In this document: positions 33,245 to 48,048 of the stretch, one piece after another
Position numbering within the stretch: position 1 is the first letter of the stretch
Layout of the letters: every line of letters begins with the position of its first letter
Assembly (NCBI RefSeq): GCF_044324785.1
Contig: NZ_CP172127.1
DNA: 64,000 bases
Strand: one strand, 5' to 3'
From: Escherichia coli
GTDB lineage: Bacteria; Pseudomonadota; Gammaproteobacteria; Enterobacterales; Enterobacteriaceae
Program-made: the position numbers and the translations under genes
The notes under the pieces: model-generated
Seen by the model: only the letters and a program-made list of their open reading frames with translations
What the model was told of the DNA's origin: nothing
Databases searched by the model: none

Positions 33245-33463
33245 TTCCGCCACTCTGTGCCGGTTTACTGCACCGGCACATCCCCCCTCCGGCAAAATTT
33301 GTCCAACCTGTTGTACTCAATAAGAAAAAATCCGTGCGCTAATTCACAAATTTGTGCGTAATTTCTCCAGTCCGCTGGACGAGGAGCGGGATTTGATGCG
33401 CTTCACAATTTTACTCCCCCTGAGCAACGAGACTGATTCCAGTATCTAAGACTGGAGTCCAGT

Positions 33464-39010: not shown

Positions 39011-43075
<4,065 letters not shown>

Positions 43076-43221
43076 TGTTATCCCTCTGAAGTTCGTTTTT
43101 TACCATTTAGCCATAGTAAAAACATGAATTGTTTGATTTCGCGCATATTCGCTCATAATTCGAAAGTGAAACGTGATTTCATGCGTCATTCTGAACATTT
43201 CAACCATCGTATTTAATAATG

Positions 43222-43237
43222 TGTGCGGTAATTCACA
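43222..43237. promoter_or_regulatory. Candidate CRP site in the divergent glpT / glpABC control region
   Basis: TGTGC-ggtaat-TCACA matches TGTGA-N6-TCACA with one mismatch. Confidence 0.55.
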
Positions 43238-43347
43238 TTTAATTTATGAATGTTTTCTTAACATCGCGGCAACTCAAGAAACGGCAGGTTCTCCCACTGA
43301 ATCAGGCTGTTAATCATAAATAAGACCACGGGCCACGGAGGCTATCA

Positions 43348-44706
43348 ATGTTGAGTATTTTTAAACCAGCGCCACACAAAGCGCGCTTACCTGCCGCGGA
43401 GATCGATCCGACATATCGTCGATTGCGCTGGCAAATTTTCCTGGGGATATTCTTTGGTTATGCTGCTTACTATTTGGTTCGTAAGAACTTTGCCCTCGCT
43501 ATGCCTTATCTGGTCGAGCAGGGCTTCTCACGCGGTGATTTAGGTTTTGCCCTTTCGGGGATCTCGATTGCTTATGGATTTTCGAAATTCATCATGGGCT
43601 CGGTGTCAGATCGCTCGAATCCGCGCGTTTTCCTGCCCGCAGGTTTGATTCTGGCGGCGGCAGTGATGTTGTTTATGGGCTTTGTGCCGTGGGCGACGTC
43701 GAGCATCGCGGTGATGTTTGTACTGTTGTTCCTCTGCGGTTGGTTCCAGGGGATGGGGTGGCCGCCGTGTGGTCGTACTATGGTGCACTGGTGGTCGCAG
43801 AAAGAACGTGGCGGCATTGTGTCAGTGTGGAACTGTGCGCACAACGTCGGTGGTGGTATTCCGCCGCTGCTGTTCCTGCTGGGGATGGCCTGGTTCAATG
43901 ACTGGCACGCGGCGCTCTATATGCCCGCTTTCTGCGCCATTCTGGTGGCATTATTCGCCTTTGCGATGATGCGCGATACCCCGCAATCCTGTGGCTTGCC
44001 GCCGATCGAAGAGTACAAAAATGATTATCCGGACGACTATAACGAAAAAGCGGAACAGGAGCTGACGGCGAAGCAGATCTTCATGCAGTACGTGTTGCCG
44101 AACAAATTGCTGTGGTACATCGCTATCGCCAACGTGTTCGTTTATCTGCTGCGTTACGGCATCCTCGACTGGTCACCGACTTATCTGAAAGAGGTGAAAC
44201 ACTTCGCGCTGGATAAATCCTCCTGGGCCTACTTCTTCTATGAGTATGCGGGCATTCCGGGCACCCTGCTGTGCGGCTGGATGTCGGATAAAGTCTTCCG
44301 TGGCAACCGTGGGGCCACCGGCGTCTTCTTTATGACACTGGTGACCATCGCGACTATCGTTTACTGGATGAACCCGGCAGGTAACCCAACCGTAGATATG
44401 ATTTGTATGATTGTTATCGGCTTCCTGATCTACGGCCCTGTGATGCTGATCGGTCTGCATGCGCTGGAACTGGCACCGAAAAAAGCGGCAGGTACGGCAG
44501 CGGGCTTTACCGGGCTGTTTGGTTACCTGGGCGGTTCGGTGGCGGCAAGCGCGATTGTTGGCTACACCGTGGACTTCTTCGGCTGGGATGGCGGCTTTAT
44601 GGTAATGATTGGCGGCAGCATTCTCGCGGTTATCTTGTTGATTGTTGTGATGATTGGCGAAAAACGTCGCCATCAGGAATTACTGCAAAAACGCAACGGA
44701 GGCTAA
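43348..44706 (+). CDS. glpT: Glycerol-3-phosphate:phosphate antiporter (MFS), 452 aa
   Basis: ORF track; translation recognised as GlpT. Confidence 0.96.
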
Positions 44707-45806: not shown

Positions 45807-46706
45807 TCATGCGCCATCCTGTCTCATATCAAATTTTCCACTCTCCACTAATTGTTCTGTGCACATTTGTAGTAAAAACAGTGGACTGCCTTCTACCGGC
45901 TTTTCTTTAGCCAGCAACGAAATCTGTCGATAGAAGGTTGGTTCGAGAGGAACGGAACACAATTCACCTGCAATGGTTTTCAGCGTTAACTCTGGTAATA
46001 AGGCGATGCCTAATCCCTGTCGAATAAAACTGATCGCTGTATCCGGGTGATTAAATTCATATTTTATCTGTGGGGTAATATTCTTTTCTTTAAATAGTGC
46101 CATAATGCTTAATTCATAGCGTCCTTTACTAATAATTAATGGTTCACCCATTAACTCTTCCACTGTAATAGTGCTGTTTTTTGCCAGAGCATGGTCGGGC
46201 GGTAACACTACGGTGAATTTATCCTGATAAATGGGCACGGAGTACATTCCGCTCACCGGAAAATGAACAAAACCGGCATCAATGGATTCATTCTGAAGGG
46301 AATCAATAATCGCTGTGCTATTTTCCTCAAAAGGAATAATTTTTATATTCGGATGATGAATTTCAAAGTAGCGAATCACAACCGGTAAGATACAGGCGCA
46401 GACGCTGGGGAAACAACCAAGTCTCAGCGTTCTTTGAGGGTTCTGCTTTTCCTGCTCGGCTATCTCTTTTACTGCGTTCACTTCCCGATTAATGGCGCGC
46501 AGATGATGCACAATACGATGACCTGCTGCGGTCAGTTGTATAGCTTTACGGCGATCGCGTAACAGTATATTCACGCCAAGTTCTTGTTCGAGGGCAGCAA
46601 TTGCCTGACTTACCGCCGACTGCGTCATGAACAATCGCTTGCTGGCTTCAGTAAAGCCACCGTAATCCAGCACGGCGAGTAAAGAATTTATTTGGGTAAG
46701 AGTCAT
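45807..46706 (-). CDS. LysR-family transcriptional regulator, 299 aa (intact)
   Basis: N-terminal HTH (FMTQSAVSQAIAALEQELGV) and LysR substrate-binding domain; divergent from the MFS gene. Confidence 0.85.
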   Translation of the reverse strand: MTLTQINSLLAVLDYGGFTEASKRLFMTQSAVSQAIAALEQELGVNILLRDRRKAIQLTAAGHRIVHHLRAINREVNAVKEIAEQEKQNPQRTLRLGCFPSVCACILPVVIRYFEIHHPNIKIIPFEENSTAIIDSLQNESIDAGFVHFPVSGMYSVPIYQDKFTVVLPPDHALAKNSTITVEELMGEPLIISKGRYELSIMALFKEKNITPQIKYEFNHPDTAISFIRQGLGIALLPELTLKTIAGELCSVPLEPTFYRQISLLAKEKPVEGSPLFLLQMCTEQLVESGKFDMRQDGA

Positions 46707-46723: not shown

Positions 46724-46857
46724 TAATATTAAAACGATTAATTTCTCTAATAGCATGCCGCCATTTATACTTCTGTTCTGTAAAGTACATCACAATTTGA
46801 CGCAACCGCAGTAACGGGAGTGTTGTCTGCGTGCGTCATCCTGACAGGCGGTAGGGT

Positions 46858-48048
46858 ATGAAAGAGAAGTTATGGACGAAGGGTTTTTGGGCAATAACCA
46901 TCATCAGCTTTATTATTTTCTTCGTCTTTTATGTTTTACTAACATTGTTGCCAATTTATATCTCTGACCGCTTGCATGCCTCTCCTGATAAAGCCGGTTT
47001 ATTGGTGACTTTATTTTTAATTGCCGCCATTGTTATTCGCCCATTTGCCGGGCAATGGGTGGGTAAATACTCGAATAAAACTATTCTGGTGCTCTCTTCT
47101 CTGGCCTTTTTATTGGTCACAGCGTTGTATCCTTTTTGCCACTCAATTGAATCACTGCTTTTTATTCGGGTGCTTCATGGTATTACCTTCGGGGTTATCA
47201 CTACGGTAAAAGGAACGATTTCCGCGCGGCTGATCCCGGCCTCCCGACGTGGGGAGGGCATCAGTTTTTTCTCTCTGGCAATGGGGCTGGCGATGGTGGT
47301 CGGGCCGTGGATTGGCCTGAATATGGCGCGCTGGGAGGCCTTTAATATGGCTTTCTGGTTATGCACCGGCGTGGCAGCGGTGGGGATTATTCTGTCGCTG
47401 ATTATGACAGTGCCGCCGGTTATCAGCCATGCTGATGGTTCAACGCCGAAAATGGGCTTCGCCGCCATGTTCGATCGCGCGGCGTTGCCATTTGCGATGG
47501 TCACCTTTTTTATGACCTTTTCGTATGCCGGGGTTTCTGCTTTTCTGGCGCTTTATGCACGCGAACTTAACCTGATGTCGGCAGCCAGTAATTTCCTGCT
47601 TTGCTACGCTATCTTCCTGATGATCTGCCGTACCTTTACCGGCAATGTCTGCGACAAAAAAGGACCGAAATATGTGGTTTACCCTTGCCTTGTGTTCTTT
47701 ACGGTAGGACTGGTGGTTCTCGGCTACACCCAGGGAAGCATAATGATGGTTGTTTCTGGCGCGTTGATTGGTATCGGGTATGGTTCCGTGACGCCAGTTT
47801 TTCAGACGCAGATTATCAGTTCAGTGGAACCGCATAAAATCGGTGTCGCAAACTCCCTCTTCTTCAATGCGATGGATGCAGGCCTGGCGCTGGGAGCCTG
47901 TGTGATGGGGATGATGGTTGCACATACTGGCTACCGAATGATTTATCTGCTGGGTGCACTATTAGTGGTAGTGGCTGGTGGAGTCTATGCGCTGCAAATG
48001 AAGGGTAAAAGCGGTGTCGCGCTAGTAGTGGCAAAAGAAATTCATTAA
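46858..48048 (+). CDS. MFS transporter of unknown substrate, 396 aa
   Basis: 12-TM-like hydrophobic profile; divergently paired with the LysR regulator. Confidence 0.85.
   Translation: MKEKLWTKGFWAITIISFIIFFVFYVLLTLLPIYISDRLHASPDKAGLLVTLFLIAAIVIRPFAGQWVGKYSNKTILVLSSLAFLLVTALYPFCHSIESLLFIRVLHGITFGVITTVKGTISARLIPASRRGEGISFFSLAMGLAMVVGPWIGLNMARWEAFNMAFWLCTGVAAVGIILSLIMTVPPVISHADGSTPKMGFAAMFDRAALPFAMVTFFMTFSYAGVSAFLALYARELNLMSAASNFLLCYAIFLMICRTFTGNVCDKKGPKYVVYPCLVFFTVGLVVLGYTQGSIMMVVSGALIGIGYGSVTPVFQTQIISSVEPHKIGVANSLFFNAMDAGLALGACVMGMMVAHTGYRMIYLLGALLVVVAGGVYALQMKGKSGVALVVAKEIH

Follow-up and report, generated by a model that had tools for sequence, protein, structure and literature searches.

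The 272-bp spacer between the divergent genes glpA and glpT in the analyzed 64-kb stretch of Escherichia coli DNA (the window) is very probably the canonical glp control region. Of its two conspicuous motifs, TGTGC-ggtaat-TCACA (motif 1) is CRP site 1, and the palindrome TGAAA-cgtga-TTTCA (motif 2) is probably a chance symmetry lying over the weak CRP site 2. The region as a whole is the already known and experimentally characterized glpTQ-glpACB control region of E. coli, and nothing new was found in it. Sequence identity to curated sites, matrix scores, chance expectation, and the conservation pattern were obtained by computation; the footprints, the transcription starts, and the dependence on CRP and GlpR were taken from the literature. 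The coordinates of all features are collected in Table 1.

RESULTS

The glpA-glpT spacer and its landmarks

The interval 43076..43347 corresponded exactly to the spacer delimited by the ORFs of glpA on the minus strand and glpT on the plus strand, and the products GlpA, GlpB, GlpC, GlpT, and GlpQ were all identified by NCBIfam equivalog models. A 472-bp query around the spacer found a match in 5419 of 5426 complete E. coli genomes, with the flanking genes always annotated as glpA and glpT and the best match at 99.8%. The reading of this interval in the earlier note as the glpT/glpABC divergent control region is therefore upheld by the agreement of the ORFs, the NCBIfam models, and the E. coli annotation.

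The positions of the GlpR operators and CRP sites were taken from secondary sources (PMC3050690; PMC3105977 Table S4; PMC5352689). From the CRP positions given by RegulonDB, the transcription starts were placed at 43271 for glpT and 43139 for glpA. Upstream of the glpT start, the sequence TA(A/C)(C/T)AT was conserved at 43259..43264, at a fixed distance to CRP site 1, in nearly all aligned spacers, and fits a glpT -10 element. A sigma-70 pattern scan detected neither of the known promoters, as expected for activator-dependent promoters. The sole sigma-70-like pair in that scan, TGAACA-17-AATAAT on the plus strand at 43192..43220, was at chance level (1 observed versus 0.9 expected).

Table 1. 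Features of the glpA-glpT spacer and its flanking genes (window coordinates)
Feature	Coordinates	Strand	Position relative to transcription start	Basis and remarks
glpA CDS, first gene of glpABC	41447..43075	-		ORF; NCBIfam equivalog NF008313, 1108 bits; annotated glpA in E. coli genomes
GlpR operator	43088..43107	-	glpA +33..+52	PMC3050690; 14/20 to GlpR consensus
GlpR operator	43128..43147	-	glpA -8..+12	PMC3050690; 15/20 to GlpR consensus; TATGCGCGAA-ATCAAACAAT on the glpA strand
CRP site 3	43129..43150; core TTTGATTTCGCGCATA, 43132..43147		glpA -0.5; glpT -131.5	PMC3105977 Table S4
Candidate glpA -10 hexamer, GAATAT	43145..43150	-		Start at 43139; putative hexamer, from the sequence
GlpR operator	43148..43167	-	glpA -28..-9	PMC3050690; 10/20 to GlpR consensus
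Motif 2 palindrome	43167..43181; dyad 43174		glpA -28..-42	Covers the glpA -35 region and the left part of CRP site 2
CRP site 2	43169..43190; core 43172..43187; centre 43179.5		glpA -40.5; glpT -91.5	RegulonDB identity; conservation
GlpR operator	43180..43199	-	glpA -60..-41	PMC3050690; 12/20 to GlpR consensus, local maximum
CRP site 1	43219..43240; core 43222..43237; centre 43229.5		glpT -41.5; glpA -90.5 (literature-derived starts)	Consensus match, PWM, conservation, footprint, RegulonDB
Candidate glpT -10 hexamer, TAACAT	43259..43264	+		Start at 43271 from CRP site 1 at -41.5; putative hexamer, from the sequence
Reported IHF site	43285..43321	+	glpT +15..+51	PMC3050690; contains match AATCAGGCTGTTA, 43300..43312
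glpT CDS, first gene of glpTQ	43348..44706	+		ORF; NCBIfam equivalog NF008433, 976 bits; annotated glpT

GlpR operators were scored against the consensus WATGTTCGWT-AWCGAACATW, which was reportedly given by Zhao et al. in 1994. On this scale the background of the window was 5.9 ± 2.0 of 20, and five 20-mers in the 64 kb reached 15/20. The four operators reported for glpACB at -60..-41, -28..-9, -8..+12, and +33..+52 (PMC3050690, citing Larson 1992) all fell on local maxima of the score, which supports both the glpA start at 43139 and the mapping. Together they leave 43168..43179 (glpA -40..-29) uncovered. The operator at -8..+12 was conserved across species and coincides with CRP site 3, which scored 7.42 bits with the CRP matrix described below (rank 55) and is listed in the RegulonDB copy as TTGTTTGATTTCGCGCATATTC, at glpTQ -131.5 and glpABC -0.5 (PMC3105977 Table S4). 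Among the best conserved blocks of the spacer in the aligned genomes was CATTTAGCCAC at 43103..43113, within the glpA 5' UTR (approximately +27..+37), which extends past the GlpR operator at +33..+52. On the glpT side, the match AATCAGGCTGTTA was read from the sequence by comparison with WATCARNNNNTTR, the IHF consensus. IHF sites have been reported at glpT +15..+51 and +193..+227 (PMC3050690, citing Yang 1997).

Motif 1 is CRP site 1

Motif 1, TGTGCggtaatTCACA, differs from TGTGA-N6-TCACA by one mismatch. The 64-kb window contained 4 sequences within one mismatch of this consensus, where shuffles gave an expectation of 1.63, and approximately 0.007 would be expected per 272 bp. A symmetrized CRP matrix was built from 61 RegulonDB core sites of unrelated operons, taken from PMC3105977 Table S4. 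With this matrix motif 1 scored 11.65 bits, ranking 3rd of 63,985 positions and exceeding the 75th percentile of the training sites. Given the consensus count and the matrix rank, motif 1 stands well above chance.

The published data agree. In enterohemorrhagic E. coli (EHEC), the DNase I footprint of CRP-cAMP spans 25 bp with AATGTGTGCGGCAATTCACATT, at glpT -30..-52 (Kurabayashi et al. 2017, PMC5352689), and in crp and cyaA mutants glpT expression was below detection (PMC5352689). The RegulonDB copy in Table S4 of Shimada et al. 2011 lists CRP site 1 as ATGTGTGCGGCAATTCACATTT, at glpTQ -41.5 and glpABC -90.5 (PMC3105977), and the window matched all three RegulonDB CRP sites at every base but one, which lies between the half-sites of site 1. 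The CRP site proposed on TGTGC-ggtaat-TCACA is thus confirmed by matrix rank, published footprint, and RegulonDB entry alike.

For comparison across species, a species-representative genome collection was scanned with GlpT, yielding 80 loci, 54 of them with a divergent glpA. The alignment comprised the window and 31 genomes, nearly all Enterobacteriaceae, with spacers of 249 to 276 bp. Across these 32 spacers, the TGTGC and TTCACA of CRP site 1 were largely conserved, the six spacer bases were variable, and the median matrix score was 11.9 bits. Directly upstream of the CRP site 1 orthologue, a block TTGTCAT-N6-TGTAACA was observed in most Enterobacterales outside Escherichia (loci L005-L034 and L031-L068); it was absent in E. 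coli, E. albertii, and E. whittamii, and the corresponding segment of the window is approximately 43199..43219.

Elsewhere in the window, the top CRP matrix hit was TGTAAAGTACATCACA at 46779..46794, with 13.3 bits, located between a full-length LysR-type regulator (45807..46706, minus strand) and an MFS transporter (46858..48048, plus strand). Residues 226 to 291 of this regulator match the 68-aa model PRK09729, which presumably corresponds to the K-12 yfaH remnant. Another hit, TTTGATGCGCTTCACA at 33392..33407 (13.26 bits), corresponds on the opposite strand to TGTGAAGCGCATCAAA, a CRP sequence from genomic SELEX listed at yfaXWVU/yfaY (Shimada 2011 Table S3, PMC3105977).

Motif 2 is not above chance as a palindrome

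The symmetry of motif 2, TGAAAcgtgaTTTCA, was compared with chance expectation. Perfect inverted repeats with 5-bp arms and spacers of 0 to 12 bp numbered 8 in the 272-bp spacer versus 4.95 ± 2.8 in dinucleotide shuffles, 17% of which reached at least 8. In the 64-kb window as a whole, 95 perfect 5-N5-5 repeats were found. From the shuffle counts and the window-wide abundance, motif 2 is not above chance as a palindrome. Its hairpin folding energy, calculated for single-stranded DNA, was also ordinary (z = -0.07). The RNA search gave no credible Rfam match, its single hit having E = 0.4 and 16 bits versus a 49.5-bit threshold. A role in RNA is unlikely, as the palindrome precedes both transcription starts.

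The symmetry was also poorly maintained in other genomes. The arms were fully paired (5/5) in 5 of the 32 aligned spacers, and 3 or fewer pairs were present in 16 of the 32. What was conserved under motif 2 was (C/T)GTGA at 43172..43176 and GCGYC at 43183..43187, which are the half-sites of CRP site 2 and not the arms of the palindrome. From the sequence comparison, the palindrome looks like an accident of Escherichia/Citrobacter/Enterobacter sequence, and we infer that it is a fortuitous 5-N5-5 symmetry without a function of its own.

Read in its own register, the palindrome was rejected on spacing and scores as a binding site for CRP, FNR, or GlpR. Its half-sites are spaced TGA-N9-TCA, versus TGA-N6-TCA in the CRP/FNR family, so that it does not qualify as a CRP site in this register, and the two matrix frames centred on it scored -2.0 and -0.3 bits.

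That the palindrome is part of a GlpR operator, as the earlier note had offered among its options, is most improbable. A tandem run of operators does cross the region, and those at -60..-41 and -28..-9 flank the palindrome and overlap it by 2 bp and 1 bp, respectively. However, the palindrome fills the 12-bp gap between them and so falls in the stretch that the reported intervals leave free. Furthermore, 20-mers spanning the whole palindrome matched the GlpR consensus at 4 to 7 of 20 positions, which is background, versus 10 to 15 of 20 for the reported operators.

CRP site 2 lies under the palindrome in an offset register

CRP site 2, AAACGTGATTTCATGCGTCATT, is listed at glpTQ -91.5 and glpABC -40.5 (RegulonDB, PMC3105977 Table S4), and all 22 of its 22 positions were identical in the window. 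Its core, CGTGATTTCATGCGTC, reads CGTGA-TTTCAT-GCGTC. The right 10 bp of motif 2, CGTGATTTCA, coincide with the left half-site of this core and run on into its spacer, and the dyads of the palindrome and of CRP site 2 are 5.5 bp apart. Of the alternatives that the earlier note offered for motif 2 without choosing between them (GlpR operator, FNR site, or second CRP site), the second CRP site therefore held, with 10 of the 15 bp lying in a RegulonDB CRP site core, whereas the GlpR operator and the FNR consensus did not. The note located both motifs correctly, but to frame motif 2 as a palindrome is misleading, since CRP recognition does not run through the arms TGAAA and TTTCA and the CRP dyad is at 43179.5.

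In E. coli the matrix score of CRP site 2 was not above background (0.48 bits, rank 3141 of 63,985). The assignment therefore depends on the RegulonDB entry and on cross-species conservation rather than on a sequence match. Among the orthologous 16-mers, those of Escherichia scored 0.6 bits and those of several Citrobacter and Enterobacter 3 to 4 bits, rising to 8.6 bits in Raoultella, 9.6 bits in Entomohabitans, and 10.1 bits in K. oxytoca. In these last three the palindrome was mostly or fully lost (0 to 3 of 5 arm pairs; 0 of 5 in K. oxytoca). This cross-species pattern suggests that a CRP-type element has been conserved here and that CRP site 2 is its decayed form in E. coli.

More distant Enterobacterales carried a stronger site. 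In Yersinia, Serratia, Dickeya, Edwardsiella, Providencia, Moellerella, Brenneria, and Limnobaculum, a near-consensus TGTGA-N6-TCACA of 11 to 15 bits was found upstream of glpA. In the distant loci (L031, L036, L037, L048, L050, L057, L058, L062, L066, L068, L073, and L078), the strong CRP site was located 60 bp from the conserved operator TTGATAAGGAACAA, versus 40 bp in the E. coli group; the two spacings differ by one unit of 20 bp, the length of an operator. Where both sites were detected, this CRP site was approximately 91 to 93 bp from the CRP site 1 orthologue, versus 50 bp in E. coli. Given the 60- versus 40-bp spacing, positional homology with the E. coli CRP site 2 is plausible but unproven.

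FNR and NsrR at the palindrome

It is unlikely that the palindrome, or the sequence under it, is an FNR site for anaerobic induction of glpACB and glpTQ, even though published data place FNR near it. FNR(D154A) protected approximately 70 bp in vitro, from 32 bp upstream of CRP site 1, corresponding to about 43115..43187 (PMC5352689), a span that takes in CRP sites 2 and 3, the palindrome, and three of the GlpR operators. FNR-dependent activation of glpT has been reported, a site near -41 of glpA would be in the class II FNR position, and the Yersinia CRP site at the equivalent location is overlapped in its left half by an FNR-like ATGAT-TGTG-ATCAA. In addition, a comparison of ten genomes gives glpABC with FNR candidate sites in several of them (PMC1805755).

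However, no match to TTGAT-N4-ATCAA with up to two mismatches was present within 43076..43347, and the TGA-N9-TCA spacing of the palindrome is as foreign to FNR as to CRP. The E. coli 14-mer at the position equivalent to the Yersinia element matched the FNR consensus at 4 of 10 positions, and the conserved half-site, GTGA, is of the CRP type rather than the FNR type, TTGA. The authors of the footprint themselves nominated a different FNR-like motif, TTGAT-TTCG-CGCAT at 43133..43146 (PMC5352689), a sequence that is also part of both CRP site 3 and the -8..+12 GlpR operator. By term search, glpT and glpA occurred in three tables only of Myers et al. 2013 and its supplements, and were absent from the wild-type peak table S5 and the predicted-site table S6 (PMC3688515). 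Considering the consensus scan, the spacing, and these tables, direct action of FNR is possible, but not via a consensus site, and the palindrome is not singled out.

A nitric oxide-responsive role was also considered, in which the left arm of the palindrome would be an NsrR site linking glpA expression to nitric oxide stress. An NsrR ChIP-seq peak has been described in the glpT/glpA spacer of E. coli CFT073, and the half-site predicted under it, ACGTTTCACTT, corresponds to the opposite strand of 43164..43174 and overlaps the left arm (PMC5320621). An extra protein contact at the palindrome is therefore possible. The peak was weak, however, the motif score was low (4.95), and a single 11-bp half-site was predicted, making this explanation extremely unlikely. 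It is also very unlikely that the palindrome is a genuine site for a further dimeric regulator (NsrR, or FNR bound in a noncanonical manner), confined to the Escherichia-Citrobacter-Enterobacter branch and overlying CRP site 2 in its decayed form; such a site, if real, would account for the breadth of the FNR(D154A) footprint as well as for the NsrR ChIP peak.

Two E. coli alleles between CRP sites 1 and 2

The stretch 43191..43209, between CRP site 2 and CRP site 1, was found to be dimorphic in E. coli, the window carrying TTCTGAACATTTCAACCATCG and K-12 carrying TTTTGAACATTTTGTAAATCT. With a 101-bp query (43150..43250), identity of at least 99% was found in 1314 complete genomes and identity of 90 to 95% (K-12 type) in 3541. 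The allele of the window is thus the minority form, present in approximately 24% of complete genomes, versus approximately 65% for the K-12 type. The first variable base of the patch lies inside the GlpR operator at -60..-41.

DISCUSSION

Proposed regulation of the two promoters

Since CRP site 1 is centred at -41.5 of glpT, cAMP-CRP bound there overlaps the -35 region and activates glpTQ, in all likelihood in the class II manner; the binding and the CRP dependence are published, and the contacts are suggested by the position. The same CRP dimer sits at -90.5 of the glpA start. CRP site 2 is in the class II position for glpACB, which would suggest the same mechanism there, and each of the two CRP sites lies approximately 91 bp upstream of the opposite promoter. 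The left arm of motif 2 falls in the poor -35 region of glpA. With motif 2 in the gap between operators, GlpR bound along the -60..+52 run therefore occludes the glpA promoter together with CRP sites 2 and 3. GlpR reportedly also represses glpT at a distance with the help of IHF (Larson 1992, Yang 1997), and glycerol-3-phosphate relieves repression by releasing GlpR. Several CRP sites have been noted in the glpTQ-glpABC spacer, with their individual roles unsettled (PMC3105977).

As a discovery the result matters little, because this is a textbook control region of the glp regulon, and the check is useful mainly as a calibration. A strong CRP site could be called correctly from the bases by themselves; the eye-catching palindrome proved to be the by-product of an offset, overlapping, and much weaker real site that becomes visible only through footprints and comparison between species. 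In practical terms the region is of some relevance, since fosfomycin uptake is determined by the expression of glpT; natural spacer variants, among them the two alleles at 43191..43209, might in principle alter susceptibility to the drug.

Comparison with known systems

With FNR sites (TTGAT-N4-ATCAA), the sequence around the palindrome shares the regulator superfamily, the expected promoter position, and protection by FNR(D154A) in vitro. It differs in the half-site spacing of the palindrome, in a spacer without a consensus match, and in that no wild-type ChIP peak was found by term search (PMC3688515).

The closest counterpart is the glpTQ-glpACB region of K-12, which is the same locus with an equal spacer length and a mean column identity of 99% with the window. 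Footprints of the K-12 region are said to have been reported by Larson, Cantwell and van Loo-Bhattacharya in 1992 (J Biol Chem 267:6114), and the same control region was reportedly studied by Yang, Gerhardt and Larson in 1997 (Mol Microbiol 24:511). No base differed from K-12 in CRP sites 2 and 3 or in three of the GlpR operators; the fourth operator (-60..-41) contained one base change, at 43191. In CRP site 1 the half-sites were equal, and one spacer base was T in the window versus C in K-12. Otherwise the glpA-glpT spacer of the window departed from that of K-12 MG1655 only in the patch of substitutions at 43191..43209 and in a single base at 43294.

At class II CRP-dependent promoters such as galP1 and melAB, a CRP dimer is bound near -41.5 over a poor -35 element. 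The glp promoters resemble these, glpT with CRP site 1 and glpA with CRP site 2, in having CRP near -41.5 and a poor -35 element. Unlike galP1 and melAB, however, they form a divergent pair in which the CRP site near -41 of one promoter is the site near -91 of the other, and in which CRP site 2 is very weak and lies inside an array of repressor operators.
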